DNA of 64,000 nt from Flectonema sp. DT1601 (Eukaryota): assembly GCA_964019425.1 (NCBI GenBank), contig OZ025797.1, forward strand, positions 806,001 through 870,000, given 5' to 3'. The notes under the pieces are model-generated. The model was given only the letters and a program-made list of their open reading frames with translations, made no database searches and was not told the DNA's origin. Below, piece by piece: positions 22,901 through 52,900 of this stretch. How positions within the stretch are numbered: the stretch's first letter is position 1; each line of letters opens with the position of its first letter. The translations under genes were made by a program, and so were the position numbers.

Positions 22901-25900
22901 AGAACACTCAACACAGTTCGGGTAATTAATTCTACCCACACCACATCTACTACAATCAGATGACTCATCAAACTCTGATGAGCAGATTGTACACTTTGAT
23001 CCTGACCACTTGTTCCTGCAGTGACACTGACAGCTATCATTGATATCGTCAATACTAATAGCAATCGCATTCTCACTGCAGTCTACAACATTGCAAAGAG
23101 TGCAGGTGGGGTATTGAACTCTTCCAGCTGCGCACTTGTCGCAGTCAGCAGCGTCAAATTGCGGGGGACAGACAGAGCAGTCAAAACCAGTCCATTGAGA
23201 TCTACATGTGCACAAACACTTGTTGTCATTTGTTCTAACTACTGCTTCAGCATTCTGCGCTCCCGAACAGTGAGTTGCCAAAGTACACTTCTCTGTACAA
23301 TCTGGTAGTAAGAATAATGAAATACATTCACTACAATCTAATCCGGTGAATCCTGATCTGCATGTGTTACAAGATTCCCCAGCCCAGTTACCACTACAAG
23401 TGCAAAGACAGTTTCCGTTAGCCGATGAAACATCGTCAGCGTTACCGGAACAGTCAACTGCGACGTCACATTTTCGGCATACAGAGTTTTGCTGTACGAA
23501 ACCCGTCGCGCATTCGACGCAATCACTTCCCCTTGTGTAGCCTTCAGGACATGTCGAACAGTCTGTTGAGGCCCATTTGTTTCTGCAGGTGCAGATGCAG
23601 CCGCTGTGTTGTGACATAGTTGGGTGAGTATGTGTGAATGATGACACTGTCGTGGCGTGGTTAGAACAATGGACATCAATAGAACACGGAACACAGTCTG
23701 GGTAGTCAATGTAACCTGGTGAGCAACTATCACAGGCAGAACCCAGGTAACGTTGCTGACAAGTACACAAACAAACTCCACCTTCTGCGATAGTTGAAGC
23801 AGCATGACCACTACAATCTGTTAAGGAGTCACACTGTCTGCAGTTAGGAAACCCAACATAGTTATCAAGACATCCATTACAGTTCTTATTACTATCGAAT
23901 GGTTCTGCACATGTTTCACAAGAAGAACCTGTCCATTCATTTTGACAACTGCAACCACACGTTTCTTGATCTTGTTTCTTAATACTTTCAACAGCATTAC
24001 CTGAACAGTGAATATTAACATCACATAATACACACGATGGATAATTTAATCTATTAGGTCCACAGCTGTTACAAGAATCAGAAAACTTACTAAAGTCACA
24101 TTCGGAGCACTTGTTTCCTTTCCACTGGTCAGAACATGTGCAGATGCAGCTGCTGTGGATGTCATCAGATACAACAGCTGTTGCATGCCCACTACAGTGA
24201 TAATTTATAATACATTCTCCACATTGTGGATAACCAGTTCTTCCGACTGTACACTCTCCACAGTTCTTTGACGCATCGAATATCGAAGGGCAGGTTTCAC
24301 AATTTGCTCCAGTCCATTGATTCTCACAATCACATACACAAACAGTTCTCGAAGGATTAGAAGTAACAGTTGTCGCTCTTGAATTACAATAAGCAGATGA
24401 TGTACATTCTTCTGTACATCCCTGAGAGTAATTAATGAACTTAGTAGAGCATTTGTTGCAGTTGTTACCTTCAAAGTTGTCGGGACAGGTTTCACAAGAA
24501 GTACCTGTCCAGTAGTTGTTACAGACACAAGAGCATTCAGTCATGTCAGAGTTTGTAGTGGAGACTGTTCCATGTGATGAACAACTGATTTCATTTGTAC
24601 ACTTTGTACAATCTGGATATAAAATATGCATTGATGCACACTTTGAACATCCATCATTTGAATTATATTTTTGAGGGCATGTTTGGCAACTTGAACCAGA
24701 CCACATTTCATCACAATCACACACACACACCAAATGCATTCCACTTGATGTTACTTGTGATGCATGTGAACTACAATGTTTATCAATACTACAATACTCA
24801 CACTCTGGATAATTAATATATCCGTCAGCACACTGTGAGCAGTCTGATGAAGACACGAAGTTTAACGAACACGTTTGACATGAAGAACCACTCCACTGAT
24901 TCCTGCAACTGCATTCACAAGTTGGGTTTACACCACCTGGTGAAGTGACACCAACAGCGTGATTTGAACAATGGCTTGCTATGTTACATGGAAGACAACT
25001 ATGACCGTAGTATCCAATTTTACACTCATCGCAGGTTGTTCCTTTCCATCCAGTGCTGCAAGTACAAACACATTTATCATTATACTCATCAGATGTAACA
25101 TGTGAAGCATGTCCATTGCAGTTAATATTATTATCACACATCACACATCCTAATTCATATTTCACATATCCAACAGCACACTCATTGCAGTCAACACCGC
25201 TAAACTTCGGATGGCAATATGAACAGTCAGCTGTTTCCCAACTATTTCTACATCCACACAAGCATTTGTTTTCAGATACGATTGATGAAACAGTAACAGC
25301 ATTACCATTACAATTAGCAGTCTTTGTGCACTCAACACAAACACCATCAACTTCAATACATCCAACTTTACATATTGGTACTGCTTCTGAACAGTCATAA
25401 GTACCTGGACAACTATCACACCTGTCTCCAATATATGGATGTTTGCACTCACAAGAACAGCCATTTGACTCGACGATACTCGAAACAGAATGACCATTAC
25501 AATAGGAGTCATCACAAGTCACATCGCAGTCAGGCCAGTTGAAGATGTGCGCCGCACACTCACTGCAACCAATGCCACCGTAATTCGTAGGACACGACTC
25601 ACAACGAGCGCCAGTCCACGGGAATGAGCATCCGCTACACGTGCAGACCAACGGATTCTCAAACGAATCCGTCCCAACAACACTCGCACGACTGTTGCAG
25701 TGCTGCACATTCGTACACAGCAAACAGTCCCCATTGGCCTTCACGTATCCTTGAGCACATCCATCACAAACATCTCCCACTTCCCGGAACCGCACAGGAC
25801 ACTCTTCGCAGTCACTCGCCTCAACCCACCTTCCCGTGCAGCTGCAAGTGCACCTCGTGCGGGCAGCATTCGACGTCACAGACGAACTGTGTCCGAAGCA

Positions 25901-28900
25901 ATCATTCTCAACAGAGCAAGCCCTGCACGAAGATCCCGCAACAACGTACCCCACAGCACACAGCTCGCAGCGTGACCCCGCGTATCCTTCGTTGCAGGCA
26001 CAATCACACTCAGTCTGTGCCCCATTTGCACTCGCCACTCCGCGGCTTCCGCAGTGAGCGTCCCCACGACACTCCTCACAAAGCTCGTTGTATCCGCTCC
26101 CGAGGATGTGGTTGCTCGCACACTTCCCGCATCCTCCGTTCGTGTCACGGGCAAACGTCGCAGCACACTCTCCGCAAGCCAATCCCGTGTAACGGGTCTT
26201 GCATTCACAGTCACACTGCGTCTTCAGCCCATTCACTCCCCAAGATTTCGCATTCCCGTTGCAGTTCCCGACATTCGTGCACATCCCACACGTCGGGTAG
26301 TCGTATCGCTCCGCCCCACACTCCCTGCAGTTCGCAGTAACGTCGAATTCACTCGGGCAGTTGTTGCAGCTCGTCCCCGTCCACTGGTGCACACACTTCG
26401 TGCAAGTGCAAGTCAACATGTTCATGTCCACCTCAATCACACCGTCTGACCTGCTGTTGCAGTGGTCCTCGCTCGTGCACTCGTCGCACACGGGGTATCC
26501 AACACGTCCTCCCGAACACGCGTCGCAGTCCGATCCCGCGAATCGTCCAGGGCACGTCCCACAGAACTCACCTGTCCACTGCGTCCCTGCCTTGCAAGTG
26601 CACAAGCACACGTTCCCGTCACTCGTCACAGAATCCGCGTGACCGTTGCAGTCCCCAGCCACCGTGCACTGTCGGCAACCCGGGTACTCCACCCTCCCCA
26701 CAGCACAGCTCCTGCAGTCTGGATCCACGCTGTAGATCTCCGGACACGTCGAGCAGTCCAATCCCGTCCACTGGTGTCGGCAGTCGCAAGTGCATCCATC
26801 GATCCCTGCTGCGTGGTTCGAACAGTCATCTTCAACAGTGCAGCGAGTGCACGTCGGGTAGTCACGGTAGCCATAAGCACAAGCATCGCAGTTTCGACTG
26901 CTGTCGAAGCGAGTCGGGCAGTAGTCACAAGTGTATCCCGTCCACTGCGCAACATCGCAGTTGCACACGCAGATTCGACTCGCGAACCCGACAGGTGTTT
27001 GGGTTTCCGCTGTCGACGCCCTTCCATTGCAAATAGCATTCGTGCACGGCTCGCATGTCGGGTAATTGTCTAGACTCGACGGCGCACATGTGTCACAGAG
27101 TTCAGTCTGCTCGTACCTAACCGGGCACCGGCCGCAGTGGTTGCCTTCCCAAGAGTTGTCACAATCGCATTCACAACCATCACCATCAACATTAGGAGCG
27201 GAAGTTCCATGATTGTTGCAGTCAGAAGCCACACACAACCTGCAGCCCATAGAAGATGTCGCGCTACCGGCATACCCCATTGCAACATCGCACACACCAC
27301 ACGTCGACCCGGTGTAACCTTCCGAACAGCTACAGAGGCAGGAAACCCTCCCAGGATTTGGTGATGCTGTCCCGTGAGAGTTGCAGTGATCCCCAGATGA
27401 ACAGATCTCAACACACCTACTTGAATACCCAATTCGGTTCCCAGAACACACATCACAGTCTGTTCCTCCGAACTCGAGTGGACACAGAGAGCAATCGTCT
27501 CCACTCCACATGTTCCGACATTCGCAACCGCACACCCGTTGAAACTCGTCGGCTGTTGACGTAGTCGCATGTCCCCAACAGTGAAACTCAGGAGTGCACA
27601 ACGTGCATCCATGGACCGGATCATCAACGTGGTTGGCAGCGCACCTATCACACTGAGTTCCACCGTACCGTATCTCACATGTGCCGCAATCAGTGCCACT
27701 CCAGTAGTTGCTACAGGTGCACTCACACGCAGTGTTGCCAACATTTGAAGTTGATCTAGTTGCGTGACCAGAACAGTGACCAGAAATGGTACACTTTTGA
27801 CATCCACTCGCGATATCGATGTGCCCAACAGCACACGAAGTACATCCGCTGGAGAATGCGAAGCCAATCTTGCAGCTTTCGCATGTTGGAAGTGCCCAAT
27901 TTCCTTCACAAGTACAGAGACAGTTCAGGTTTCCAATGGCTGAAGTTACAGAAACAGCGTGTCCATGACAATGACCAGATGAAGTACAAGCAGTGCATTC
28001 ATCGAATGTAATGTATCCCACTGTGCAGGAGTTGCAATCCTCGTTGCTGTCGTGTTTGGCTTCACACAGTTCACAACTATCTCCGTGCCACTTGTGCTTG
28101 CAGTTGCACACACAGGCATCATGTGCCTGGTTAGATGTTGTTACATAGGCATGTGCAGAACAGTGAGTAGTGACATCACACTCATTACAGGATGGGTAGT
28201 TGATGTACCCAACTGCACACTGGCCACAAGTAGTACCAGCAAAACCTATTGAGCATGAGCACACACAGGAAGTGTGCTGAGTGTTGCTGTATAAAGAATC
28301 AGCATTACCATTACAGTGAGAAGTTATATCACACTGAACACAATACTCAATCCCATCTTCAATATATCCATCTGCACATGTCAGACAATCAGAAGAATCA
28401 AATCTTTGATCACAAGAAGAACAGCTGTCACCATGCCAGTGGTCATGACATGAACAACCACAAGCAGCATGATTTGCGTTTGCTGCTGCAGCACCATGGG
28501 AATTACAATGTTGAGAAGGGTTACAAACTTCAACACAATTATTCGGGTAGTCAATGCGGTCACCTGAACAACGATCGCAGTTTATTCCACCAAAAGCACT
28601 CGGACAGATATTACACGAAGGCCCTGACCATTTATTAGAACAACTGCAAACACACGCTGTGTGCCAGTGATTAGAAGTCACATCAGATGCATGAGAATTA
28701 CAGTGATCTGCAACTGTACACAATCCACATTCCGGGTAGTTCCCGGAGTAACCTTCGGCACATTGACCGCAGTTTTCGTTCGAATCGAATCTTTCAGGAC
28801 AGGTTTGACATTGAAGTCCAGTCCAACTATTTTTACATTCACATTCACAATAAATGTGATTATCATTTGATGTTGAACTGTGTGAGTGTTCAGTTGATGT

Positions 28901-31900
28901 ACAGTGTGTTGACACATCACATACTTCTTCACAACCTGACTCATATCCAATACGACCATCAGAACAGCTACCACAGTAAGGTCCAGAGAACTCAATTGGA
29001 CATACACTGCAGTCAGCACTTGACCATTTATTTGAACAACTACAAACACATTCAGTTGGATTACCATCGACATCATTCTCAGTGCCAGTAATAATTCCAT
29101 TATTAGAACAATCATGAACAGTACATAGTCGGCATTCAGGACCTACTCTGTTGGTACCACATTCTGTACAATCTGATGACACGGTAAAACGTTGGTCACA
29201 AGTTGCACAAAACAAGCCGAGCCAGTTTGCTTTGCAATCGCAGGTACACTCCAAACCGTCTTCAGACGACTGTACATTGACCGCATTGCCTGAACAGTTA
29301 GCAGTTGCCTCACATAAAATACAACTCGGATATCCATATCTGTTATCAGCACAACTATCACAAGATGATGAATAAATATCTGAACAGTCACTACAAATTG
29401 AACCCTCCCACTGGTCAGCGCACGTACAAACACAACCATCGTGCAGTTGATTACTAATTACAAACGATGAGTGACCACTGCAATGTGTTGCAGAGCTACA
29501 TGGATCACATGAGGGCCAGTTGATAAATCCTAGAGAGCATCTCTCACAAGCGGCACCTTCGAATCCAAAAGTACACTCACAGACACATCCTGAATGATCA
29601 TCATTGCTAGTGATATAAACAGCTCTGTCATTACAATCAATTACTGAAGAGCATCTCCTACAATTGTTATCATTCACAACATAATGAGTTGCACAACCAC
29701 TGCAGTCATTTGCTACCTCATATTGAACTGGACAGCTAACGCAACTTCTATCATCTTGCCATTGACTTCTGCAACTGCATACACAGCGATTCTCAGCAAC
29801 ATTTGAAGTTACACTAATCGCATTATTATTACAATTACTACTAACAGTACATGCAACACATAGTCCATCAACTTCAATGTATCCAACTGAGCAGATTGGA
29901 ATAATACTTGAGCAGTCGTATCCAACAAAACAAACACCACAAGTATCTCCCTTGTATGGATGCCTACAAGTACACTTGCAATCATTGTTTTCTACTACAC
30001 TTGTTAAAGAGTGACCACTACAATAGGAGTCATCACAAGTCACATCGCAGTCAGGCCAGTTGAAAATACTTTCCGCACAAGTATTACAGCTAGGCCCTCC
30101 GTAATTCGAAGGACACGACTCACAACGAGCGCCAGTCCACGGGAATGAGCATCCGCTACACGTGCAGACCAATGGATTCTCAAACGAGTCCGTCCCAACA
30201 ACACTCGCACGACTGTTGCAGTGCTGCACATTCGTACACAGCAAACAGTCCCCATTGGCCTTCACGTATCCTTGAGCACATCCATCACAAACATCTCCCA
30301 CTTCCCGGAACCGCACAGGACACTCTTCACAGTCACTCGCCTCAACCCACCTTCCCGTGCAGCTGCAAGTACACCTCGTGCGGGCAGCATTCGACGTCAC
30401 AGACGAACTGTGTCCGAAGCAATCATTCTCAACAGAGCAAGCCCTGCACGAAGATCCCGCAACAACGTACCCCACAGCACACAGCTCGCAACGTGACCCC
30501 GCGTATCCTTCGTTGCAGGCACAATCACACTCAGTCTGTGCCCCATTTGCACTCGCCACTCCGCGGCTTCCGCAGTGAGCGTCCCCACGACACTCCTCAC
30601 AAAGCTCGTTATATCCGCTCCCGAGGATGTGGTTGCTCGCACACTTCCCGCATCCTCCGTTTGTGTCACGGGCAAACGTCGCAGCACACTCTCCGCAAGC
30701 CAATCCCGTGTAACGGGTCTTGCATTCACAGTCACACTGCGTCTTCAGCCCATTCACTCCCCAAGATTTCGCATTCCCGTTGCAGTTCCCGACATTCGTG
30801 CACATCCCACACGTCGGGTAGTCGTATCGCTCCGCCCCACACTCCCTGCAGTTCGCAGCAACGTCGAATTCACTCGGGCAGTTGTTGCAGCTCGTCCCCG
30901 TCCACTGGTGCACACACTTCGTGCAAGTGCAAGTCAACATGTTCATGTCTACCTCAATCACACCGTCTGACCTGCTGTTGCAGTGATCCTCGCTCGTGCA
31001 CTCGTCGCACACGGGGTATCCGACACGTCCTCCCGAACACGCGTCGCAGTCCGATCCCGCGAATCGTCCAGGGCACGTCCCACAGAACTCACCTGTCCAC
31101 TGCGTCCCTGCCTTGCAAGTGCACAAGCACACGTTCCCGTCACTCGTCACAGAATCCGCGTGACCGTTGCAGTCCCCAGCCACCGTGCACTGTCGGCAAC
31201 CTGGGTACTCCACCCTTCCCACAGCACAGCTCCTGCAGTCTGGATCCACGCTGTAGATCTCCGGACACGTCGAGCAGTCCAATCCCGTCCACTGGTGTCG
31301 GCAGTCGCAAGTGCATCCATCGATCCCTGCTGCGTGATCGGAGCAATGCTGTTCAACAGTGCAGCGAGTGCACGTCGGATAATCTGTGTAACCATAAGCA
31401 CAGATGTCACACGTTGCCTGATCAAATCGCGTTGGACAATAATCGCAGGTATAACCTTTCCACTGCGCAACATCGCAGTTGCACACGCAGATTCGACTCG
31501 CGAACCCGACAGGTGTTTGGGTTTCCGCTGTCGACGCCCTTCCATTGCAAATAGCATTCGTGCACGGCTCGCATGTCGGATAGTTGTCTAGACTCGACGG
31601 CGCACATGTGTCACAGAGTTCAGTCTGCTCGTACCTAACCGGGCACCGGCCGCAGTGGTTGCCTTCCCAAGAGTTGTCACAATCGCATTCACAAACATCA
31701 CCATCAACATTAGGAGCGGAAGTTCCATGATTGTTGCAGTCAGAAGCCACGCACAACCTGCAGCCCATAGAAGACGTCGCGCTACCGGCATACCCCATTG
31801 CAACATCGCACACACCACACGTCGACCCGGTGTAACCTTCCGAACAGCTACAGAGGCAGGAAACCCTCCCAGGATTTGGTGATGCTGTCCCGTGAGAGTT

Positions 31901-34900
31901 GCAGTGATCCCCAGATGAACAGATCTCAACACACCTACTTGAATACCCAATTCGGTTCCCAGAACACACATCACAGTCTGTTCCTCCGAACTCGAGTGGA
32001 CACAGAGAGCAATCGTCTCCACTCCACATGTTCCGACATTCGCAACCGCACACCCGTTGAAACTCGTCGGCAGTTGACGTAGTCGCATGTCCCCAACAGT
32101 GAAACTCAGGAGTGCACAACGTGCATCCATGGACCGGATCATCAACGTGGTTGGCAGCGCACCTATCACACTGAGTTCCACCGTACCGTATCTCACATGT
32201 GCCGCAATCAGTGCCACTCCAGTAGTTGCTACAGGTGCACTCACACGCAGTGTTGCCAACATTTGAAGTTGCTCTAGTTGCGTGACCAGAACAGTGACCA
32301 GAAATGGTACACTTTTGACATCCACTCGCGATATCGATGTGCCCAACAGCACACGAAGTACAATCGCTGGAAAGAGCATATCCAACCCTGCAGCTTTCAC
32401 ACGTTGGAAGTGCCCAATTTCCTTCACAAGTACAGAGACAGTTCAGGTTTCCAATGGCTGAAGTAACAGAAACAGCGTGTCCATGACAATGACCAGATGA
32501 AGTACAAGCAGTGCATTCATCGAATGTAATGTATCCCACTGTGCAGGAGTTGCAATCCTCGTTGCTGTCGTGTTTGGCTTCACACAGTTCACAACTATCT
32601 CCGTGCCACTTGTGCTTGCAGTTGCACACACAGGCATCACGTAATAAATTCGTAGTGACATATGTCGCGTGACTGGAGCAGTGAACATCAATATCACACT
32701 TATTACAAGATGGGAAGTTGATATAACCGACAGCACACCTTTCACAAGTGAGCCCAATAAAACCTGTTGAACATGAACAAATACAGGAAGTGTGTTGTTC
32801 GTTGCTGCCAGTAAAATCAGCGTTACCGTTACAATGAGTTGTGATATCACACTGCACACAATGGTCGATACTATTTTGGATATATCCATCTGCACATGTC
32901 AGACAGTCAGAAGAGTCAAACTTCGGATCACAAGTAGCACAATTAGTTGCAACATGCCAGTGGTTATCACAGGTACAGTCACATGCAGTGCGTAAAGTAT
33001 TTGGTGTTGCCATTCCGTTAGAATTACAGTGCTGTGATGAACTACATATCTCAACACAATCATTTTGGTAGTCAATACGATCTCCTGAACATTCGTTGCA
33101 GTCGATGCCACCAAATTCTTCCGGACAGACTGCACACGCAGATTCGGGACCAGTCCACTTATTAGTACAGCTGCAAACACACGCTGTGTGCTGCTCATTT
33201 GAAGTAACAGTCGAAGCATGTGAACTACAGTGATCGATAGTTGTACACAATCCACATTCCGGATAGTCTCCTGTGTAGCCTGCAGAACACTGACCGCAAT
33301 CTTCGTTTCTGTCAAATCGCTCAGGGCACGACTCACATCTATCTCCTGTCCAACTGTTACGGCAGTCACATACGCAAGATACTCTGTTCGCATTGGATGT
33401 TGCGGAGTGTGCGTGATCTTCAAAGCAATGAGATGCTGTTGTGCAAACTTCAACACAGTTGCTGTCGTACCCAATGCGACCTAGAGCACAAGTATTGCAA
33501 TCTGCTCCTGCAAACTCTTGTGAGCAAATACTACAATCAGAACCAGACCATTTATTATTACATTCACAAGTACAAGACGTATGTAAGTCATCTGTTCCAG
33601 TAGGTGTTCCATGACTAGAGCAGTCTGTAGGTACACAAAGTCTGCATGTGGAACCAATTCTGTTTGCTGAGCATTTCAAACAATCGGATTCTTCGGTATA
33701 TTGAACAGTACAGGTTTCACAATAATCACCACTCCAGTTATTACGACAGTTGCAATCACACACCTGACCTTCTTCGGATGAAACAGAATTGTGAGCGTGA
33801 TCAGAACAATTAGCACTCGGTGAACACAATATGCAATCCGGGTAGTTAAATCTATTTAATGAACATCTATCACATTCACTACTAAATAATGATGAACATT
33901 CATCACACACATCACCACTCCATTGATCAGAACACGTACACAAACAAGATGTGTGCGTAAGATCTGAAGTTGTTAACGAAGCGTGTGTTGAACAATGAAC
34001 ATCTGATGAACATAAAACACAGTTCGGCCAATTAATAAAACCAATGTCACACTTCTCACAGTTATTACCAGCAAATCCAACATCGCACTGACACAAACAT
34101 ATACTGTGTTCATCATTACTACTAACACCTGATTGCTGTGCGTGACTATTACAATCAATTTCTGCTCTGCATTGCCTGCAGTCACTTGCTTCAGTAATAT
34201 AACCGGTTGCACATCCACTACAATCATTAGTTATTTCAAATCTAGTTGGGCAAGTTGAGCAGTCGCTTTCTTCTGTCCATTCATTTTTGCAGCTACAAAT
34301 ACAACGATTCTCTGCCACATTTGAAGTCACACTAACAGCATTGCCACCACAATTATCAGCTACTGTGCAGACAACACAATTACCTTCTACGTCAACATAT
34401 CCAATTGAGCAGATTGGAGTCTCACCTGAGCAGTCGTAGCCCAAAAGACAACTACCACACTTAACTCCAATATATGGATGTTTGCACTCACAAGAACAGC
34501 CATTTGACTCGACGATACTCGAAACAGAATGACCATTACAATAGGAGTCATCACAAGTCACATCGCAGTCAGGCCAGTTGAAGATGTGCGCCGCACACTC
34601 ACTGCAACCAATGCCACCGTAATTCGAAGGACACGACTCACAACGAGCGCCAGTCCACGGGAATGAGCATCCGCTACACGTGCAGACCAATGGATTCTCA
34701 AACGAGTCCGTCCCAACAACACTCGCACGACTGTTGCAGTGCTGCACATTCGTACACAGCAAACAGTCCCCATTGGCCTTCACATATCCTTGAGCACATC
34801 CATCACAAACATCTCCCACTTCCCGGAACCGCACAGGACACTCTTCGCAGTCACTCGCCTCAACCCACCTTCCCGTGCAGCTGCAAGTACACCTCGTGCG

Positions 34901-37900
34901 GGCAGCATTCGACGTCACAGACGAACTGTGTCCGAAGCAATCATTCTCAACAGAGCAAGCCCTACACGAAGATCCCGCAACAACGTACCCCACAGCACAC
35001 AGCTCGCAACGTGACCCCGCGTATCCTTCGTTGCAGGCACAATCACACTCAGTCTGTGCCCCATTTGCACTCGCCACTCCGCGGCTTCCGCAGTGAGCGT
35101 CCCCACGACACTCCTCACAAAGCTCGTTATATCCGCTCCCGAGGATGTGGTTGCTCGCACACTTCCCGCATCCTCCGTTCGTGTCACGGGCAAACGTCGC
35201 AGCACACTCTCCGCAAGCCAATCCCGTGTAACGGGTCTTGCATTCACAGTCACACTGCGTCTTCAGCCCATTCACTCCCCAAGATTTCGCATTCCCGTTG
35301 CAGTTCCCGGCATTCGTGCACATCCCACACGTCGGGTAGTCGTATCGCTCCGCCCCACACTCCCTGCAGTTCGCAGCAACGTCGAATTCACTCGGGCAGT
35401 TGTTGCAGCTCGTCCCCGTCCACTGGTGCACACACTTCGTGCAAGTGCAAGTCAACATGTTCATGTCCACCTCAATCACACCGTCTGACCTGCTGTTGCA
35501 GTGGTCCTCGCTCGTGCACTCGTCGCACACAGGGTACCCGACACGTCCTCCCGAACACGCGTCGCAGTCTGATCCCGCGAATCGTCCAGGGCACGTCCCA
35601 CAGAACTCACCTGTCCACTGCGTCCCTGCCTTGCAAGTGCACAAGCACACGTTCCCGTCACTCGTCACAGAATCCGCGTGACCGTTGCAGTCCCCAGCCA
35701 CCGTGCACTGTCGGCAACCTGGGTACTCCACCCTCCCCACAGCACAGCTCCTGCAGTCTGGATCCACGCTGTAGATCTTCGGACACGTCGAGCAGTCCAA
35801 TCCTGTCCACTGGTGTCGGCAGTCGCAAGTGCATCCATCGATCCCTGCTGCGTGGTTCGAACAGTCATCTTCAACAGTGCAGCGAGTGCACGTCGGGTAG
35901 TCACGGTAGCCATAAGCACACGCATCGCAGTTTCGACTGCTGTCGAAGCGAGTCGGGCAGTAGTCACAAGTGTATCCCGTCCACTGCGCAACATCGCAGT
36001 TGCACACGCAGATTCGACTCGCGAACCCGACAGGTGTTTGGGTTTCCGCTGTCGACGCCCTTCCATTGCAAATAGCATTCGTGCACGGCTCGCATGTCGG
36101 ATAGTTGTCTAGACTCGACGGCGCACATGTGTCACAGAGTTCAGTCTGCTCGTATCTCGAAGGACATCTGCCGCAGTGATCGCCAGTCCATCGATTGTCA
36201 CAATTGCAAACACAATCCGTACCTGCCTCACTTGGTAATGAGTTTCCGTGGCCATTGCAATCGTCTGCCCTGGTGCAGAGGCGGCAAGAGTGAGTGGAAG
36301 GGTTTCCTGCGTAGTTATTTGGACTATCACATGTATCACAACTGGAACCACTGTAACCAGATTTACAAGAGCAAATACAAGGAGAGTTTCCACCTGCAGA
36401 AGAAACAGAATCCGCATTTCCACTGCAATGGCTACTGACAGAACACAATCCGCAATGTTCACCACTTGGTGCATAATTTAATGAGCAAGCTAAACAATCG
36501 GATTCAACAGAATAGCCTGGCGGACATGTCTCACAGAGGGCCCCTTCCCATTTATTTCTACAAGATAAACAAACACAAGAGGATTGATCATCTGATGGAG
36601 AAACAACAACAGCATTTCCATTACAATGATCTGCTGAAGTACAATGAATGCAGGTAGGAGTATAGTAACAAGTTGCAGCTTGTGAAGATGAAGATTGACT
36701 GTTGACTCTAATTGAATTCTTTGAGAAAGTACAATAAGAAGTTAAACTATTCCACAAACAACAACCAGCAGTACTTTGACCATTACACCAACTAACACAC
36801 TCTGAAGAAGTACCCTTCAAAACAGGAGGAGTTAGTATGTTTGACGGGTTAACAGGAACTTCACATTTCTTATAACTCACAAGACTTGAACACGGAGAAC
36901 CATCAAGCTGTTCTCTGAAATGTGTAGATGAGCAAAGCTGACAATTTGGTCCAGTCCAACCAGAGTCACAACTACAGACGCAATGCTTATGATCAATTGA
37001 AGATGCTACCGTTCGTGCGTGACCACCACAATGTGAATTAATATCACAAAGTACACAATTAGTACCTGCGTATCCATCTGAACACCGAGAGCATTCAGAT
37101 TCTTGTGAATATTGAACAGGACAAGTTCTACAAGAAGTTGTTGGATTCCAATTATGTTGACAACTACAAACACATTCTGTTTGGTGAATGTTTGGAACAA
37201 CTGAAAGTGCGTGTCCGTGGCAGTGATCTTCAACAGTACATCTAACACAGTTATCGAGAGCACCAACAGAAATATAATCATCTGCACATCTATCACAGTC
37301 AGTACCACCGTACTGTTCTGGACAGGTATCACATTTTGTTCCAGTCCAATAGTTGTGACAATTGCAAGCACACTCAAATTGAGTAGTGCGAAGAATGTCA
37401 ACAGTACCGTGAGCACTGCAGTCAGTAGTTTGTAAACACATTCTTGAATTAGTCATGTACCGTTCGTTACTAATTGGGTTTATAAAGTGTTCTCCAACAT
37501 ATCCAGGAGCACATAAGTTACAGTTTGCACCAACATATTCTGCCGGGCAGGTTGAACACTGTGATCCTCTCCAATTGGTTGAGCAACTACAGCGACAGTT
37601 ATTTGTAGAGAAATCAAAGTCAACTTGATAAGCATGATTACTACAATGATCTGATACTAAACATCCATTACAGACTGGGAAGTTAAATCTTCCTATGGCG
37701 CAAGCATCGCAGTTCAGACCTGAAAACCTTGATGGACAAGTTTCACACTGCAACCCACTCCACTTGTTAATACAACGTTGACACAAACAAGTTGAATGTG
37801 AGCCATCAGATGTCACATCATCTGGTAAAGCATTTCCACTACAATGAGAAGGAAGGCATCGAGTACAAGTTGGGTAGTCGATATGTCCTTCACGACACTG

Positions 37901-40900: not shown

Positions 40901-43900
40901 CCCTCCGTAATTCGTAGGACACGACTCACAACGAGCGCCAGTCCACGGGAATGAGCATCCGCTACACGTGCAGACCAACGGATTCTCAAACGAGTCCGTC
41001 CCAACAACACTCGCACGACTGTTGCAGTGCTGCACATTCGTACACAGCAAACAGTCCCCATTGGCCTTCACATATCCTTGAGCACATCCATCACAAACAT
41101 CTCCCACTTCCCGGAACCGCACAGGACACTCTTCGCAGTCACTCGCCTCAACCCACCTTCCCGTGCAGCTGCAAGTACACCTCGTGCGGGCAGCATTCGA
41201 CGTCACAGACGAACTGTGTCCGAAGCAATCATTCTCAACAGAGCAAGCCCTGCACGAAGATCCCGCAACAACGTACCCCACAGCACACAGCTCGCAGCGT
41301 GACCCCGCGTATCCTTCGTTGCAGGCACAATCACACTCAGTCTGTGCCCCGTTCGCACTCGCCACTCCGCGGCTACCGCAGTGAGCGTCCCCACGACACT
41401 CCTCACAAAGCTCGTTATATCCGCTCCCGAGGATGTGGTTGCTCGCACACTTCCCGCATCCTCCGTTCGTGTCACGGGCAAACGTCGCAGCACACTCTCC
41501 GCAAGCCAATCCCGTGTAACGGGTCTTGCATTCACAGTCACACTGCGTCTTCAGCCCATTCACTCCCCAAGATTTCGCATTCCCGTTGCAGTTCCCGGCA
41601 TTCGTGCACATCCCACACGTCGGGTAGTCGTATCGCTCCGCCCCACACTCCCTGCAGTTCGCAGTAACGTCGAATTCACTCGGGCAGTTGTTGCAGCTCG
41701 TCCCCGTCCACTGGTGCATACACTTCGTGCAAGTGCAAGTCAACATGTTCATGTCCACCTCAATCACACCGTCTGACCTGCTGTTGCAGTGGTCCTCGCT
41801 CGTGCACTCGTCGCACACAGGGTACCCGACACGTCCTCCCGAACACGCGTCGCAGTCCGATCCCGCGAATCGTCCAGGGCACGTCCCACAGAACTCACCT
41901 GTCCACTGCGTCCCTGCCTTGCAAGTGCACAAGCACACGTTCCCGTCACTCGTCACAGAATCCGCGTGACCGTTGCAGTCCCCAGCCACCGTGCACTGTC
42001 GGCAACCTGGGTACTCCACCCTCCCCACAGCACAGCTCCTGCAGTCTGGATCCACGCTGTAGATCTCCGGACACGTCGAGCAGTCCAATCCCGTCCACTG
42101 GTGTCGGCAGTCGCAAGTGCATCCATCGATCCCTGCTGCGTGGTTCGAACAGTCATCTTCAACAGTGCAGCGAGTGCACGTCGGGTAGTCACGGTAGCCA
42201 TAAGCACAAGCATCGCAGTTTCGACTGCTGTCGAAGCGAGTCGGGCAGTAGTCACAAGTGTATCCCGTCCACTGCGCAACATCGCAGTTGCACACGCAGA
42301 TTCTACTCGCGAACCCGACAGGTGTTTGGGTTTCCGCTGTCGACGCCCTTCCATTGCAAATAGCATTCGTGCACGGCTCGCATGTCGGATAGTTGTCTAG
42401 ACTCGACGGCGCACATGTGTCACAGAGTTCAGTCTGCTCGTACCTGCTGGGGCAATAACTACAGTCGTTGCCATCCCATCGATTATCACAATTACAAATA
42501 CTATCAGTACCTTCTTCATTAGGCAAGGACCCTCCATGACTATTGCAGTCGCCATCTCGGGTACAGAGGCGACAGCCAACAGATGGGTCGAGAGCTCTAC
42601 CAACGTAATTGTTTAATACATCGCAAGTATTACAACTACTACCGGTGAAGCCAACCTTACAGATACAGACACAAGGTGTGTCACCTCCAAGTGATGACAC
42701 GGATATCGCATTTCCATTGCAGTGAAGATCAATGGAACAGAGTTCGCAATCACTACCAGCGTAGTTTGAAGAACAGGCGAAACAATCAGAAGCAGTGGTG
42801 TACCTAACGGGACAGTTTTGACATGAAGAACCAAACCAGTTGTTACGACACTGATGACAAACACAGGAATACTTATCATCTGATGATCCAACTGATAATG
42901 AATTCCCATTACAATGTTCTTCAGAAGTACACAACACACAAGACTTTAATTCACTTGAAACAGAAGTACGACACATTGATCCTTTAAAGTAATTATTACC
43001 TGACTCAAATAGATATCCTGGAGTACCTTCACGAGTTGGATAAAATCTACAATATTGATACTGCTCATGGTACTGACAACAACCTGCTTCACCATAAGAC
43101 TCACAACAGTGATGACACTGAGATGATGTTATTGCGTCTGGACAGTTAATATAAAATGGATTTGGTCTACAAGAAACTCCATTACTGAAAGTATCGCAGT
43201 AAGAGAGGCGACTTGACTTCCTTGACGTTCCAATTTGTTTTGTTTTGAAATTTCTCGTTGTGGTTGAAGAACACAATTTTGGACCACTCACACGACCAGG
43301 TGACTCACCTATTTGAGTCTGTTGACCAACTTGTTTGTTTGCTTTCAGATAACACATTCCTGTTGTGTTGTAAGTCCAGAACTCACACTCTGAGTGGGCT
43401 TGACATATCTGTTGACAGTGGAGTGCAGTGAGTGACGGATGTTTTGATAATGTGTTATCAAACCCAACACCGTAGTACTCGCTACTCATGTCAAAGCAAC
43501 TGCAAGGTCGACATTCTTGATGACTGTCAGCAACCTGTTCCTTTGCTGAGTCAACAGATACTCCAGAAACTTGAAGAGATAATATCAACTGACCACAAGT
43601 CTGTCCCTGAGGTCCAATTATTAAATTCCAAGTTGGTGCTTCTGGAGAGCATGAGTCAGGTAGACACGCACCACATTCATGAGAGTGTAGTGAAGCAGCT
43701 TGTTTACGAGCTTCATAATCAGATAAACCAGAAACAATACCAGAAGTAATTACATCACCACAAGTCTTTCTTGGTGATGAAAGAGGGATTTCAACTCCAC
43801 TCACTAGAGAACAAGAATCAGCGCAGTCAACTCTAATTGAATGAACACTGAATGCTGAATCACCATTTTGATCAGCAGATCCAAAGTCCAATCGAATATG

Positions 43901-46900
43901 AGTGACGTCATGTTTGATAGAATCGAATGAATGAATTGTAAACCTCCCAAAGGCAAACTCTGATGCTGGATCCGTGTAAGTCGTGAACTGACCTTCACCA
44001 AACTTGTTATTGTTGGTGTCGTAGCTGCCAAACATTTTCTCACGTTGAGTAACAACTGTCCATGATAATCCTCCATTGGTTGAGATTGATATCTTTATTC
44101 CAGAATATCCAGTTGAAAATGATTCTTTATTAACTAATATCGATACACTAGAAACACTATAAGAACCATGCAGGCTCAGCTTAACAAAGAAACCAGTCGC
44201 TGTACTCTGTCTGAATCGCACTAGGCTTATCTTCCCGTTAAGCGCTGCGTTGATGTTACCTCTGATGCTTATTGCGTCAAGGTTGTGTTGTCCTTCGTTG
44301 TTTTTCATTACTCCAATAATACCTGTTATACTACAGTGACCAATAGAAGTAGGTTTATTCCATGATGTCACATGGTTAATTTCGATATTCTGAAAGCTGA
44401 CGCTACCAGAATCCCCAGCCTTGAACACCATTTCAATATCAGTAGCACCAGCTATCTGCTTTGAGAAGATGTGTTTTGTTGGAACAGATGCGTCGAAACC
44501 TGCTGCAGGATCATCACCGTTGCTGTAGAATTGCTCATCACGTCTGTGGACCTGCTCGTAGAGACCTCCTCTGCTAACGCTAATAATAACTCCAGCATAT
44601 CCTGGTAAGCTGCCATCATCGGATGTGCCGACGAGTACAGAAATACTTTCCACATCAGTGGCAGCTCCGAGGTGTAAATATAAAATTACGTTATCACCTT
44701 GTTGAGTAGATATGGTAAAAGCTGAATTAATATTCCCATTTAGTACTTGTGATGGGTCTGATGATGTCACAACAGTTCCATCAGAAAGCTTTACAACTCC
44801 AGTGATGAATGGCAACTCTGAGTGTCCACAACAGTCTGCGAAGGTACCATCATCGTCAGGGCAGCAGTTTCCAGTTTTGTCAGCCGATACACATCTTGGA
44901 TGGGATGCGCACTGTTCATCACTTAAAGGTGCATCAGAGTAGCCATCATCACACTGTTCACATCTGTCTCCTGTCCATCCTGTTGAGCAAACACATAAAC
45001 AAGATTCAGAAGTGTATCCAGTTGGTTCAACAGAAGATGCATGATTACTACAATGTTCTTTAATAGAACAAGGAGTACATCTCGGGTACTCAACGTATCC
45101 AGGTGCACACTCATCACAGTCCTGACCTCCATAATTATGTGGACAGGAAGCACAGTGAGGTAGCATCCACTGATGTTTACACTCACAGAAGCAGTTCGTT
45201 TGTTCGATGTCAATATTAACTCGTGTTGCGTGACTGTTACAGTAAGATAGATCACAAACAGAACAAGAAGGATAATTAATCCTACCAATAGCGCATTGTC
45301 TACAATTGCTACCAGCATACATCGATGGACAGCTATCACACAAATCGCCGACCCATTGATTTACGCAATTACATTTACAACTGTCTGCCGCTGCTGTTCG
45401 AACTACGTCAATGACGCCCTCATTCTTACAGTGACAGCGAGAGCACTCTGGGGTACGTACTCTCCCTGGTGCACATTGAGAACAGTCAGAAGTTTGCGAA
45501 TATTTCGAATCACAAGTATCACATTGATTACCTCTCCAGTAATTCCTGCAGCTACAGATACAACGATCCGTACCGTCACTTGTAACAGACGTTGCGTGAC
45601 TTGCACAGTTATCCACAATAGTGCACTCACCACAGGCTGGGTAGTCGTACCTCCCAAATTCGCATCTGCCGCAGTTTTGACCACCAAAGCGGTCAGCGCA
45701 AGTCTCACAATTATCACCAGTCCAGCTGTTTATACAACTATTACACACGCATCTATCTCTTGAAGGGGTGCTTGTGAAATCATTTGACCTCCAAAAGCAA
45801 TCCCGCGAAGTACATTCTCTGCATTCATTACCGCCATCGATGTCCAGGTAGTAGCCCTCCGAGCAGATGCTGCAATCTCTGTTTGAGTCCCATCCAACTG
45901 GGCATCTCTGACAGCTTGTGCCTTCCCAACGATGTCTGCAAGTGCAGCCGCAGTTATTATTATTTGAAGATTGAATATTAACAACACCGTGATTTGTACA
46001 ATCATTTGATGTGCACATCCTACAAGTCGGATGGTTTGTGAATCCGGAAGTACATTCAACACAATTTGGTAACTTGAAGTTCGCAGGACACTCGTCGCAG
46101 GCATCACCAATCCAATTACCTATGCAATTACAAAGACAACGAGACCTGTCTGTGAGAGAACCAATCACTCGTCCATTTCCATTGCAGTGGACGTTAGAAC
46201 TGCATCTCACACACGACGGAGCAATTCCAACAAAGTCTGCCGAACATTTATTACAATCGCTGTCAGGATCAATGCCTCCTGAACATTGTTGACAATTGGT
46301 ACCTGTCCAGTGGTTCCTACAACTGCAAACACAATTACGTTGATTATGATCAGTAGAAACAGATATCGCATTATTATTACAATCAGATACTGTACAGACT
46401 CTACAGTTTGGATAATTAATATGTAGCGGAGAACACTTTGAACAATCTCTGCTGGGATCATATATCTCAGGACAAGTACTACAGGTAGTGTCAGTCCATT
46501 GATGTCTACAAGTACAGTGACAGGTGTCATCAATGGCTCCAGATGACTCTGCTTTCCAGGCATTTCCAGAACAGTCAGTTGACACTTCACAAGATCGACA
46601 GGTATCAAAATCAACGTGATTGACACGACACTTGTCGCAGTCATTTCCGCTGTAGGGGTAGTCGCAGTTTTGACATCTCTTTCCACTCCACTTGTTGAGA
46701 CATTCACAAACACACTCCGTGTGACCAGCGCTACTTGTAACTGAACTAGCATGCCCACTACAATGAGTATCAACTTCACACTTAACACATGATGGATAAC
46801 TAATATAACCTTCAGAACATTCTCCACAATTGGCTGTCACTGAATAGATTTGATTACATTCTGAACATGTTGGTCCTGACCATTCATTCTGACAGCTACA

Positions 46901-49900
46901 CTGACATGTTGTGTGACTACTATCTGACCAGGTTGTCATAGCGTGTCCAGAGCAGTGAGTGTTGGTAGTGCAAAGTTCACAGTTTGGGTATCCAATACAA
47001 TTAACATCACATTTATCACAAAGTGTTCCAGTATATCCCTGACTGCACTCACACTGACATCCAGATCCAGGACGTGACCAGCTGTTGTCTGCATGTCCAT
47101 TACAATGAACTTCTGTACTGCAAGGTTCACACAGTGGGTGGTTGAAGTTAGCAGCACAAGTATTACAACTCTCGCCCGTGTATTGAGGAGGGCAGAAATC
47201 GCAAGTAGAACCTTCCCAGTTTCCAATGCAGTCACAATAACATGAAATACCATCAGTACTTGTTGCAGTTACTGCATGTCCACTACAATGTGTTTGTACT
47301 CGACAAGGAACACAATTATTTTGGTAGTCGATGTGGTTGGCTGTGCATTCATCGCAATCAGGTCCTCCAAACTGGTACGGGCAGACAGAGCATCGAGGAC
47401 CAGTCCATTTGTTCTTACAGCTGCAGACACAACCTGTGTGATCACTGTTTGATCTTACAGTTGTAGCGTGGTTACTGCAGTGATCTTCAACTGTACAGGC
47501 CCCACACTCTGGATAAATAAAATATCCCTCAGCACACTGTCCGCAATCAGCTGAAGCATCAAACTGACTAGGACATGAAAGACAAGAAGTTACTTCACTC
47601 CATTGATCTCTGCAACTACACAAACATCCATCTTGGTTAGAATTACTTTGAACTGAATTCGCATGGCCGTGACAGTGAATACCAACATCACAAAGAATAC
47701 AGTCCGGGTAGTTAATTCGACCTACTTTACATCTTTTACATCCCTGACTCTCATCATAAATATCAGGGCAGGTACCACATGAGGGTCCAGTCCATTGATG
47801 AGAACAAATACAATCACATGACTGACCATCAGTTGCTGTTACAGTAGTAGCATGGTTACTGCAATGATCAGACACAGTACACAGAAGACAGGTTGGGAAT
47901 TGAATGTGATTTGAAGCACATTCCTGACAGTCTCTTGAGAGATCATACTTTGGAGGACAGTAATCACAGTTAGTACCTTCCCATGGAAGATCACAACTAC
48001 AAATACAATTCTTATGTTCGCTATCTGATACAACTTCTGAAGCTCTTCCACTACAGTCATCTGTTACTGTGCATTCAATGCAGTCACTTCCAATGTAACC
48101 ATCAGAACATCCATCACATGTTGTTTGTTCATAATTATTAGGACACGCTGCACAACTGTTACCTTTCCATTGATTAGAACAACTACATTCACAACCATCT
48201 TTATTTATATTAGAAATAACTACATCAGCGTGATTACTACAATGTTCATTTATTGTACACTTTATACACGATGGGTAGTTTATGTAACCAACGTCACACC
48301 TGTCACACGTTTGTCCAGTGTAGCCGATCTTACAGCCAGGTTCTGGAGGATCTTTGTTAGATAGTTGTCCATTACATAAAGGTTGTTGAGTGAATGTAAT
48401 CTCATCACTCTGTCGAGTACATATGTAGCTGTCGTATTCTAAAGAAGGGAATCCAATTACATTATCTGATGGTAGTTTTGATAAAAAGAAACATCTGTGA
48501 CGATTATCATTCGAATCGGAGAGTTGGAAAGTCGTACCAACACATCCATGTATTACTTCACACATTAACTTACAATGACTAGCACTGGCTACAACTTGAC
48601 TTGGAGATTCACCAAACATACTAACAGCTGTTGGGTTCATCGATTGAAGTAATGACGTAGAAGAGTACGATGTCCAACTACTGCAGATGCTGGGTTTTGG
48701 TTTTTCACATATCTGTGATACATGTGCACTGCTGCCGATACCAACTGTAATACCGTCGACTGAATTTGGTCTGACCAGAACAGAACTTATGAAGTAACAG
48801 ATTTGATATTCTCGATGACTCGCATCTATCTTCCTCCACGTGAACCCAACGCAGTCGGACATTTCTTCACATTTCTCCAGACAGGACCGCATGCCAACCT
48901 TCTCTGGATGGAAGACGTAGCTACTTGCTATTGTGTGACTCGTGGCAGTTTGGCGCAGGTCTACGTTGTCAAATATTCTCCATGAGCACTTTATGTCATC
49001 CACACTAGTAGTGGAGCATCCGCAAGTCGCCGGGCGTTCCGTGTTGGGTTCGATGGTACAATCTCCAGTGCAATCACTTTCATCAACAAATTTTAAGCTA
49101 CACATACTTGGGTTTCGACAGGTTAAACTGTTTTCTTCACATGTTGGAAGTGACGATGGAGGACCCATGCAAACGCATTCTTCTTGATCGGCATCAGGTC
49201 TGACAGATGACGCATGTCCATTACACATTGCAGTACTACACTTCGTACAGACATTATTATTACCACTCGATGTCTTTATGAAATCAATCTTACAAGTTTG
49301 GCAGTCGGAAGACTGTTCAACTCCAAATGGACACAACGAACACGACTCACCATGCCAGTAATTTCTACAACTACACACACATTCATTCAACCCTACGTCA
49401 CTCGTTACTGAATCAGCTCTGTTGTTGCAATGGTCTTGAACATTGCATTCGATACAATTAATATTACCGTTGGTACCAATATCAATAAATCCAATTGAAC
49501 AGATTGGTGATACACCAGAGCAGTCATATTCAACAAAGCATAACTCACATTGATTACCAGAGTACGGATGTTTACAATCACAAGAACAACCATTGTCAAT
49601 AACAGTACTTGCTGTTGAGTGACCACTACAATAGGAGTCATCACAAGTCACATCGCAGTCAGGCCAGTTGAAGATGTGCGCCGCACACTCACTGCAACCA
49701 ATGCCACCGTAATTCGAAGGACACGACTCACAACGAGCGCCAGTCCACGGGAACGAGCATCCGCTACACGTGCAGACCAACGGATTCTCAAACGAGTCCG
49801 TCCCAACAACACTCGCACGACTGTTGCAGTGCTGCACATTCGTACACAGCAAACAGTCCCCATTGGCCTTCACATATCCTTGAGCACATCCATCACAAAC

Positions 49901-52900
49901 ATCTCCCACTTCCCGGAACCGCACAGGACACTCTTCGCAGTCACTCGCCTCAACCCACCTTCCCGTGCAGCTGCAAGTACACCTCGTGCGGGCAGCATTC
50001 GACGTCACAGACGAACTGTGTCCGAAGCAATCATTCTCAACAGAGCAAGCCCTGCACGAAGATCCCGCAACAACGTACCCCACAGCACACAGCTCGCAGC
50101 GTGACCCCGCGTATCCTTCGTTGCAGGCACAATCACACTCAGTCTGTGCCCCGTTCGCACTCGCCACTCCGCGGCTACCGCAGTGAGCGTCCCCACGACA
50201 CTCCTCACAAAGCTCGTTATATCCGCTCCCGAGGATGTGGTTGCTCGCACACTTCCCGCATCCTCCGTTCGTGTCACGGGCAAACGTCGCAGCACACTCT
50301 CCGCAAGCCAATCCCGTGTAACGGGTCTTGCATTCACAGTCACACTGCGTCTTCAGCCCATTCACTCCCCAAGATTTCGCATTCCCGTTGCAGTTCCCGG
50401 CATTCGTGCACATCCCACACGTCGGGTAGTCGTATCGCTCCGCCCCACACTCCCTGCAGTTCGCAGCAACGTCGAATTCACTCGGGCAGTTGTTGCAGCT
50501 CGTCCCCGTCCACTGGTGCACACACTTCGTGCAAGTGCAAGTCAACATGTTCATGTCCACCTCAATCACACCGTCTGACCTGCTGTTGCAGTGGTCCTCG
50601 CTCGTGCACTCGTCGCACACAGGGTATCCGACACGTCCTCCCGAACACGCGTCGCAGTCTGATCCCGCAAATCGTCCAGGGCACGTCCCACAGAACTCAC
50701 CCGTCCACTGCGTCCCTGCCTTGCAAGTACACAAGCACACGTTCCCGTCACTCGTCACAGAATCCGCGTGACCGTTACAGTCCCCAGCCACCGTGCACTG
50801 TCGGCAACCTGGGTACTCCACCCTTCCCACAGCACAGCTCCTGCAGTCTGGATCCACGCTGTAGATCTCCGGACACGTCGAGCAGTCCAATCCTGTCCAC
50901 TGGTGTCGGCAGTCGCAAGTGCATCCATCGATCCCTGCTGCGTGGTTCGAACAGTCATCTTCAACAGTGCAGCGAGTGCACGTCGGGTAGTCACGGTAGC
51001 CATAAGCACACGCATCACAGTTTCGACTGCTGTCGAAGCGAGTCGGGCAGTAGTCACAAGTGTATCCCGTCCACTGCGCAACATCGCAGTTGCACACGCA
51101 GATTCGACTCGCGAACCCGACAGGTGTTTGGGTTTCCGCTGTCGACGCCCTTCCATTGCAAATAGCATTCGTGCACGGCTCGCATGTCGGATAGTTGTCT
51201 AGACTCGACGGCGCACATGTGTCACAGAATTCAGTCTGCTCGTATCTCGAAGGACATCTGCCGCAGTGATCGCCAGTCCATCGATTGTCACAATTGCAAA
51301 CACAATCCGTACCTGCCTCACTTGGTAATGAGTTTCCGTGGCCATTGCAATCGTCTGCCCTGGTGCAGAGGCGGCATTCTCGGCGATGAAGTGCAACACC
51401 AGCATATCCGATAGAGGAATGACAGGTATCACAATTAGTTCCAAAGTATCCGACTAAACATCTACACAAACAGGTTCTTCTATTAGCTGATGACGATACA
51501 AAACCAGCGTTACCATTACAATGCAGATCGTTGGTGCATTCGTCGCACGAGTCACCGTAGCGGCCTTCGGCGCAGGTGTTGCAATCATTGCCTCCGTAAA
51601 TGAGAGGACAAGATTCACAATTAGGTCCTGACCATTTATTACGACAGGTACACTCACAAGATGTTTGATCATTGTTTGGTGACACAGAAGTAGCATGATT
51701 AGAACAGTGTGTTGAAACATCACAAGTAGAACACACAAATTGAGAACGAGATGAACAATCACAAGCAGTAGGAGATAAACAAACAGATACCGATGATATC
51801 GAAGGGATTGTGTTTTGACAACTACCAGAGTATAGTCGACATGTTTGATCACGATGAGTAAAGATATCAGCAGAACTTTGGATAGCTGTTCTGTAGCAAT
51901 CACTAACAGTTGCTTGTTCAACCAGTTGAAGAAATACACAATCCTGACCAGCTTGAATTGCAACACCACTTGTCCTTGAACAAACAGTATCTAATGAGAT
52001 TGAAGTATCAGAGCATTGATTACAATAACTTCCAGTCCATCTGTTGTTACAGTTACAGATACATTCATTTCTATTAAAGTTACTGGTGACAGTTATCGCG
52101 TGACTATTACAATGAATTCTATTAGTACAGAGAATACACTTTTTATCATCATCATCTGTAATGTATCCCTCAGAACACTCATCGCAATCTGTTCCAGTCG
52201 ATCCTTCTGGACACACTCCACAACGAGGACCAGTCCAGAAGTTTCGACAAGTACAATCACATAATGTTTTCTCGTTATTAGTTGTAACAGACTCAGCGTG
52301 ATTATTGCAATGAACTTGACTAGTGCACTGCTCACAAGTTGGGTAGTTCTTATACCCAATTGAACATGTGTTACACTCATCTCCATTATATTGATCTGGA
52401 CAGGTTTCACATGTACTTCCTATCCATTGATTAGCACATGTACAAACACAAGTACCTTTCGCAGAGTCTGATGTTACTGAAATTGAATGTCCTCTGCAAT
52501 GAACGCTATCTTGACATTGATAACAAGAAGGATAATTAATACATCCGACAGTACATTCATCACAGTTATTACCCGAGTACGGTAGACTACAACTGTCGCA
52601 AGTCGGTCCTGTCCACTGATCATCGCAACTACATTGGGGACAAGTTGTAGGAGATGCACCAATCAACGATCCATGAGATGAACAATGAGTAATTGGACAA
52701 ACACAATCAGATCCAATGAATCCTTCTCGACATTTATCACAATCAAGACCATCATAGTTTGGAGGACAAACAGAACAATCAGAACCAGTCCAATAATTAG
52801 AACATCGACACTCACAAGTTACTTTATTACTAGTCACTGCTATTGCGTGATTAGAACAGTCTTCAGCTATTCGGCATCTGATGCACTTTTGTGGACCCAA

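Follow-up and report, generated by a model that had tools for sequence, protein, structure and literature searches.

Within a 64,000-nucleotide window of the euglenozoan Flectonema sp. DT1601 (GenBank assembly GCA_964019425.1, contig OZ025797.1, positions 806,001 to 870,000), a single stop-free reading frame on the minus strand (8603..64000, more than 18,465 codons and open at the window end) contains five dispersed blocks of about 1.62 kb, here called cores, which are nearly identical to one another and have a much higher G and C content than the remainder of the frame. The GC content of a segment rises with the number of its near-identical partners in the frame, and at fourfold synonymous sites of the cores the rise is confined to G. 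Taken as a whole, these features are on balance probably best explained by a conversion-linked GC rise that took place in situ, together with a force favouring G. Coordinates below are those of the window and, unless noted, refer to the minus strand.

The cores are found at 49628..51244 (copy 1; 1617 nt, 539 codons), 40826..42442 (copy 2; 1617 nt), 34538..36154 (copy 3; 1617 nt, the copy taken for composition statistics), 30020..31633 (copy 4; 1614 nt), and 25499..27115 (copy 5; 1617 nt). Apart from a patch in copy 4, they are 98-99% identical, with 12-23 pairwise differences per 1401 nt, and their GC content is 0.564-0.577 as compared with 0.409 in the single-copy parts of the same frame. A preliminary description made from the sequence alone had reported five near-identical GC-rich blocks in one exon, and this is borne out, as are its hand counts of G and C in four 60-nt lines (34, 38, 19, and 21, all exact) and the codons it listed as preferred in the cores: TGC (47/78 vs. 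23%), ACG (55% vs. 9%), GCG (45% vs. 13%), TCG (25% vs. 5%), and CCG (53% vs. 12%). The single-exon status itself is taken from the unbroken frame, not from transcripts. Its statement that the copies differ only at scattered bases applies to most of the core, but copy 4 carries a diverged 41-codon patch (31337..31459) with a 3-nt deletion and a GC content at third codon positions (GC3) of 0.39 vs. 0.60 in the other copies. This patch opens with 12 consecutive codons that all differ synonymously while keeping the amino acid, and may represent either an island around the deletion that escaped homogenization or the tract of an unseen sixth copy. No long internal DNA repeats that could inflate the counts are present within the core, and a Pfam search of the core gave no match.

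Variation among the copies is mostly silent. The 36 variable sites include 30 third positions and 33 transitions, and 31 of them are synonymous while five change an amino acid; variant density at nonsynonymous positions is 0.045 times that at synonymous ones, and the core protein is under purifying selection. Sequencing errors would not be expected to give such a pattern. Synonymous variants occupy 31 of approximately 306 sites, as compared with third-position differences of 36-49% in the old spacers between the cores. The sequences flanking each of the five cores, left and right, can be aligned in register, and the spacers that follow copies 2-5 downstream show homology to one another (43-65% protein identity); copies 3-5 are spaced by 4521 and 4518 nt, i.e., a period of about 4.52 kb, with spacers of 51-72% protein identity. 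Since the flanks are in register and the spacers homologous, the duplications are old and the identity of the cores is young. The spacers are diverged, as had been described, yet they retain homology and register; a further 1.0 kb or so is common to copies 4 and 5, at 94-100% identity. On this alignment evidence, the cores are not insertions but matching parts of old, diverged super-repeats.

The variants are also mosaic. The left flanks group the copies as {1,3}, {2}, and {4,5}, which conflicts with the grouping of the right flanks as {2,4} and {1,3,5}, the latter followed by {3,5}. Within the cores, 13 informative sites define seven distinct splits where a single tree permits two, and 44 of the 91 site pairs are incompatible (Rm 8). 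Considering that the variants are mosaic and, in 31 of 36 cases, synonymous, the cores have very probably been homogenized by repeated gene conversion inside the exon, which is the simplest explanation. Insertion of a mobile element was considered and rejected, as the 25 longest of 38 inverted pairs include none at the ends of the blocks and the flanks are homologous. Sharing by pairs of copies is also seen at the margins: copies 1 and 3 alone share a short upstream extension (51245..51376, partner 36155-36286), copies 3 and 5 alone a short downstream extension (34463..34537, partner 25424-25498; 96% identical, GC3 0.32-0.36), and copies 2 and 4 an 11-codon diverged patch close to the 3′ end of the core (40874..40906, partner 30068-30100). 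At the 3′ edge of the core, both identity and GC3 fall sharply.

The frame was divided into 322 windows of 50 codons and a partner was defined by at least 90% identity, the copies not being independent of one another. GC3 is 0.267 in the 254 windows without a partner, 0.446 in the 18 with one, and 0.635 in the 45 with four, whereas two or three partners occur in five windows. Copies 4 and 5 share two-copy extensions upstream of their cores (31634..32650, 94-100% identical to its copy-5 counterpart, and 27116..28129, GC3 0.47). Along the spacers between copies 3 and 4 and between copies 4 and 5, identity increases towards the next core in steps of 56-61%, 72-75%, 94%, and 99-100%, and GC3 over the same steps is about 0.17-0.39, 0.16-0.44, 0.37-0.41, and 0.43-0.49, reaching 0.64 in the core. 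Fitted GC weights relative to the background form a similar series, with 1.77 in the core, 1.20 in the near and 0.67 in the far part of the two-copy extension upstream of copy 5, 0.57 in the copy-4 patch, and 0.11 and -0.04 in old spacers. The GC content is thus graded across partner strata, and since the zones with zero, one, and four partners share the same frame, transcript, protein type, and chromosomal place, most confounders cancel. Milder single-copy bumps of GC3 (0.37-0.42) were noticed at 45400-46100 and 20000-20800, which have no near-identical partner in the window; partners may sit elsewhere in the genome.

Diverged relatives of the core are present in the same gene. An old single-copy relative of its central part (56950..57580) has 48% amino-acid identity and background GC, and old partial relatives (20320..21430) correspond to the core start (45%) and to a later part of the core (39%); the nearest relative of all lies at 57.4 kb, with 60% identity over 90 residues. 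Positions at which the core has G or C and the best single-copy paralogous unit A or T were counted against the reverse (S/W), which gives a contrast of composition rather than a direction of change. The ratio is 107:21 at synonymous and 50:26 at nonsynonymous positions (p 0.008), as compared with 77:67 and 90:65 in one control and 70:71 and 89:67 in a second, and the amino-acid-level GC measure GARP is 0.253 vs. 0.187. The preliminary description had suggested that the diverged relatives would polarize the substitutions; individually, the relatives at 57 kb and 21.0-21.4 kb give 48:3 and 15:4, which agrees with a GC-enriched core, but that at 20.3-20.7 kb does not, and the counts describe a difference in composition only.

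At synonymous sites, the enrichment discriminates between G and C. The 233 fourfold sites of the core comprise 108 G, 18 C, 49 A, and 58 T (G:C, p 2e-17), that is, G increases from 9% in the background to 46% while C goes from 9% to 8%; the symmetric weight of 1.77 would give 66 G and 67 C, or about 28% each. An increase in C is limited to two-codon boxes (0.66 in the core vs. 0.33), and the corresponding core weights are 2.38 for G, 1.64 for twofold C, and 0.37 +/- 0.26 for fourfold C. The best strand-symmetric dinucleotide model is worse by 63 units of the Akaike information criterion (AIC) than a model with a G term, and the G-minus-C weight is 1.29 in the core against a maximum of 0.34 among 24 background windows. 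In the near two-copy part, the G lean is weaker (1.70 vs. 0.91). Nonsynonymous positions show no G lean (G vs. C 11:9), and since G and C behave alike there, the asymmetry looks codon-level. Weak leanings in the same direction are seen in three codon classes outside the cores (background 0.19, 0.13, and 0.49; C-terminal part 0.33, 0.38, and 0.28; core 1.86, 2.51, and 1.63), and multiplying the C-terminal leanings by five matches the core values. Along the core, twofold C declines from the 5′ half (78/99) to the 3′ half (55/109; p 2e-5), with fourfold G level.

GC-biased gene conversion (gBGC) is established to act symmetrically on both strands. Strand symmetry is likewise stated for recombination in a study of Encephalitozoon cuniculi (PMC4704409). 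The proposal of gBGC in the preliminary description is consequently upheld in part: concerted evolution, the partner-linked GC rise, graded strata, and mosaic variants agree with it, but symmetric gBGC is insufficient for the fourfold sites, where C occupies 18 of 233 positions and 67 would be expected. The CpG richness noted there is also real, with an observed/expected ratio of 1.05-1.08 in the cores and 0.58 in the single-copy parts, but it is a by-product, because NCG codons are preferred and CpG at codon junctions is below expectation (46 vs. 62.3 +/- 4.1 by synonymous shuffle in the core, and 131 vs. 187.6 +/- 10.4 in the background, which is depleted likewise).

Several other candidates were rejected. 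CpG methylation or CpG-specific repair finds no match in the data, as 15 of the 36 variants lie in CpG context, about as many as the proportion of such sites would give by a hand estimate, and CpG at codon junctions is depleted alike in core and background. Purely strand-specific C-to-T mutation would also depress twofold C, yet twofold C is raised; the excess of C>T over G>A among core singletons (10/153 vs. 2/158; p 0.018, post hoc) is thus a minor lead only. An antisense gene was considered for the plus-strand frame at 34582..36075, which runs over the core for 497 codons and holds one stop where codon shuffles give 11.2 +/- 2.6 (0 of 5000 shuffles had as few). In copies 2 and 5 a stop interrupts this frame, and non-stop alternatives are avoided as well (p 0.0009 and 5e-6); it is a by-product, because the context of G or C before A holds also for codons that cannot form stops.

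The explanation we favour is that gene conversion among five matching parts of the super-repeats keeps the cores near-identical and would raise their GC content in place, the pull on a site growing with the number of convertible partners. One component would be ordinary GC-biased conversion, to which the GC lean at amino-acid-changing positions may be assigned, as may the rise in the two-copy extension, where G and C gain almost equally. The other would be a force for G-ending codons on the coding strand, with C favoured in two-codon boxes only. This second force is most likely a weak codon preference made effective as one change spreads to five copies, although a strand-specific bias in mutation or repair is an alternative source.

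Related loci were sought in metagenomes by a motif scan, which returned 22 loci; six with short frames were dropped, and five of the 16 analysed contain internal repeats. GC3 is higher in the internal repeat in all five, significantly so in two. In one of the five, L007, the repeats have a GC3 of 0.83 vs. 0.62 and gain fourfold G (38/58 vs. 43/114; p 0.0007) with C unchanged. L006, L011, and L021, which are probably one gene, gain C, the base already favoured by that gene. Which base is favoured thus seems to depend on the lineage, as would be expected if a codon preference is amplified. The frame of L007 (1-1389) is G-skewed throughout at fourfold sites and has the same 246 nt at both contig ends (99.6%); its main repeat may be a collapsed tandem unit of 1143 nt. 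At the protein level, 14 of the 86 long database matches contain identical blocks internally, three of the 14 being versions of P0043. The related giant proteins P0042, P0043, and P0011 have homogenized blocks of their own, as tandem 164-residue units in P0042 and dispersed in P0043. Protein-level GC proxies in nine relatives with internal repeats indicate a shift (p<0.05) in P0042 alone and none in the other eight.

A number of observations weigh against a conversion-linked rise with a G-favouring force. The dependence of GC on partner number is non-linear, and among windows without a 90% partner GC3 shows no increase with identity (rho -0.11). The nonsynonymous GC lean has p 0.07 against the pooled controls, one of which leans itself (89:67), and the relative at 20.3-20.7 kb shows no GC difference from the core (13:12). 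The allele spectrum among copies (15:7:5:6) is fitted about equally by neutral decay of an imported block (log-likelihood -42.47) and by gBGC equilibrium (-42.37), and compatible core sites are not significantly clustered into tracts (permutation p 0.12, 0.12, and 0.44, with 14 sites only). When the background leanings are multiplied by five, the predicted G is too low and the predicted twofold C too high. The glycine codons GGA and GGG (46/52 in the core) are unaccounted for, and the excess of G or C before codons starting with A (63/75 vs. 134/241) is without explanation. Among the five metagenome loci, G is gained only in L007, L016 having no gain and the three others gaining C. In a Drosophila family, GC is reported not to be higher in converted than in unconverted paralogues (PMC3924832).

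The principal rival is that a G- or GC-rich version from a paralogous gene or a related lineage overwrote the five positions and is now decaying, with the patches as native remnants. Such an import appears rather unlikely, though several features suit it: core codon usage does not resemble that found elsewhere in the gene (r 0.05), being nearer to some relatives (L007 0.56, L022 0.44), identity and GC3 both drop sharply where the core ends on its 3′ side, the diverged patches are lower in GC, and the allele spectrum is compatible with neutral decay. In addition, the laminin-like family is expanded in diplonemids, with 73 members in Sulcionema specki (PMC10161547). An imported block had been expected to lack native relatives; instead, relatives occur at 57 kb and at 20-21 kb, the closest lies within the gene itself, and the flanks are in register. 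The best 150 of 193 database matches are all at most 51% identical to the core and include no core-like donor, and translated scans of metagenome and viral contigs for the core found nothing. The native relatives of the block in its own gene and the empty donor search have made import less likely; the graded GC rise of the two-copy extensions would also require further imports.

It is also conceivable, if improbable, that plain gBGC acts alone and that the G-only pattern is an accident of block history or local context. A single symmetric GC parameter yields 173 of the approximately 240 likelihood units gained in the core and is enough for the two-copy region, and the signature is the same as that of converted protocadherin regions (PMC1852091). 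The fourfold G:C imbalance, the AIC loss of symmetric context models, and the failure of any background window to approach the G-minus-C weight of the core, which has no long internal repeats, argue against this. Causality might instead run in reverse, if the segment had first been G-rich on the non-template strand and recombination-prone, e.g., through RNA-DNA hybrids, and so attracted conversion. The core is indeed rich in G on the coding strand (36% vs. 22%) and in runs of GGG (23.6 vs. 3.1 per kb), and the Drosophila study mentions that base composition may promote conversion instead of resulting from it (PMC3924832). We regard this as a poor prospect, as it leaves the G-richness of the core unaccounted for, the old 57-kb relative not being G-rich, and as a simple G-cluster initiation pattern is met at one site only, in copy 5. 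It is very improbable that the repeat was falsely expanded or mixed during assembly or polishing. Polishing with mis-mapped reads can generate mosaic variants, as is generally known, but 31 of 36 differences are synonymous and 33 of 36 are transitions, the flanks are particular to each copy, and no stop interrupts the frame over more than 55 kb.

The giant protein (13.4% Cys) consists mostly of Cys-rich EGF/laminin-like repeats with PAN and F5/8-like domains in between, and C-type lectin, EGF, LamG3, and TIG domains near its end. A separate open stretch downstream (7989..8387) encodes a hydrophobic, membrane-anchor-like segment and, judged from its sequence, is likely to be the last exon of the gene. 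Three neighbouring minus-strand frames (1144-2610, 2825-3874, and 4581-6335) have a GC3 of 0.35-0.40 and no match in a Pfam search; the 64-kb window contains no tRNA genes. The top-scoring database match is from Sulcionema specki, and the best-scoring named matches are mostly diplonemid, which points to a diplonemid host; the others with names are 'Laminin-like protein epi-1' of Diplonema papillatum, a protein from an 'Hpha' transcriptome, and a membrane protein of Bodo saltans. Database protein searches and metagenome scans found no orthologue in another species, and homologue searches with the C-terminal part found none. Laminin-like proteins expanded in diplonemids have been reported as OG0000640 'Laminin-like protein epi-1' (PMC10161547), and the giant protein shows sequence similarity to named diplonemid proteins; it differs in having more than 18,000 residues, over three times the 5351 of the longest match. 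The seven supplement files of PMC10161547 that were searched contain no codon table.

GC gain in converting repeats is known, and is usually taken as gBGC, the separation of which from codon selection has long been difficult. Beside mammalian gene pairs under long-term conversion, histones are reportedly another case (Galtier 2003). In clustered protocadherin variable exons of fugu, GC3 is 54-69% in converted and 38-45% in unconverted parts, and, as here, part of a large repeat-domain exon is homogenized while the remainder diverges (PMC1852091). The partners there are separate genes rather than five dispersed blocks in one frame; in Flectonema GC3 makes a larger step (from 0.27 to 0.63), which follows the number of partners in a graded way, and the available text gives no G/C split for the protocadherins (PMC1852091). 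The mammalian DDX19A/B and TUBG1/2 pairs are likewise mosaic, GC3 being higher where the genes evolve in concert than where they diverge, but conversion occurs between genes and concerted evolution is proven by orthologues (PMC2720389). The nearest precedent for an asymmetric GC gain is the subterminal EXT repeats of E. cuniculi, which are repeated, recombining, GC-rich regions with a GC skew in which G+A exceeds C+T in association with coding (PMC4704409). Those repeats form chromosome-end compartments and their skew is put down to replication or transcription, whereas here the skew is restricted to 1.6-kb blocks of one exon, the rest of which has G = C at fourfold sites. The literature searched, which covers few subscription papers, contains no account of a G-only gain in converted repeats inside one gene.

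What is new here is a single-exon dose series together with a G-only synonymous component: one portion of the gain is symmetric, whereas the other, G-only portion is not predicted by plain gBGC. If this is general, GC3 peaks in concerted repeats need to be split into G and C before they are labelled as gBGC. A further possibility, which we put forward tentatively and rate below an even chance, is that conversion among the repeats of a single transcribed exon in this euglenozoan is not neutral between G and C but puts G on the coding strand at synonymous sites, via a codon preference multiplied by copy number or via strand-directed mismatch repair. If true, the series of zero, one, and four partners in one exon would separate the G-driving force from ordinary gBGC.

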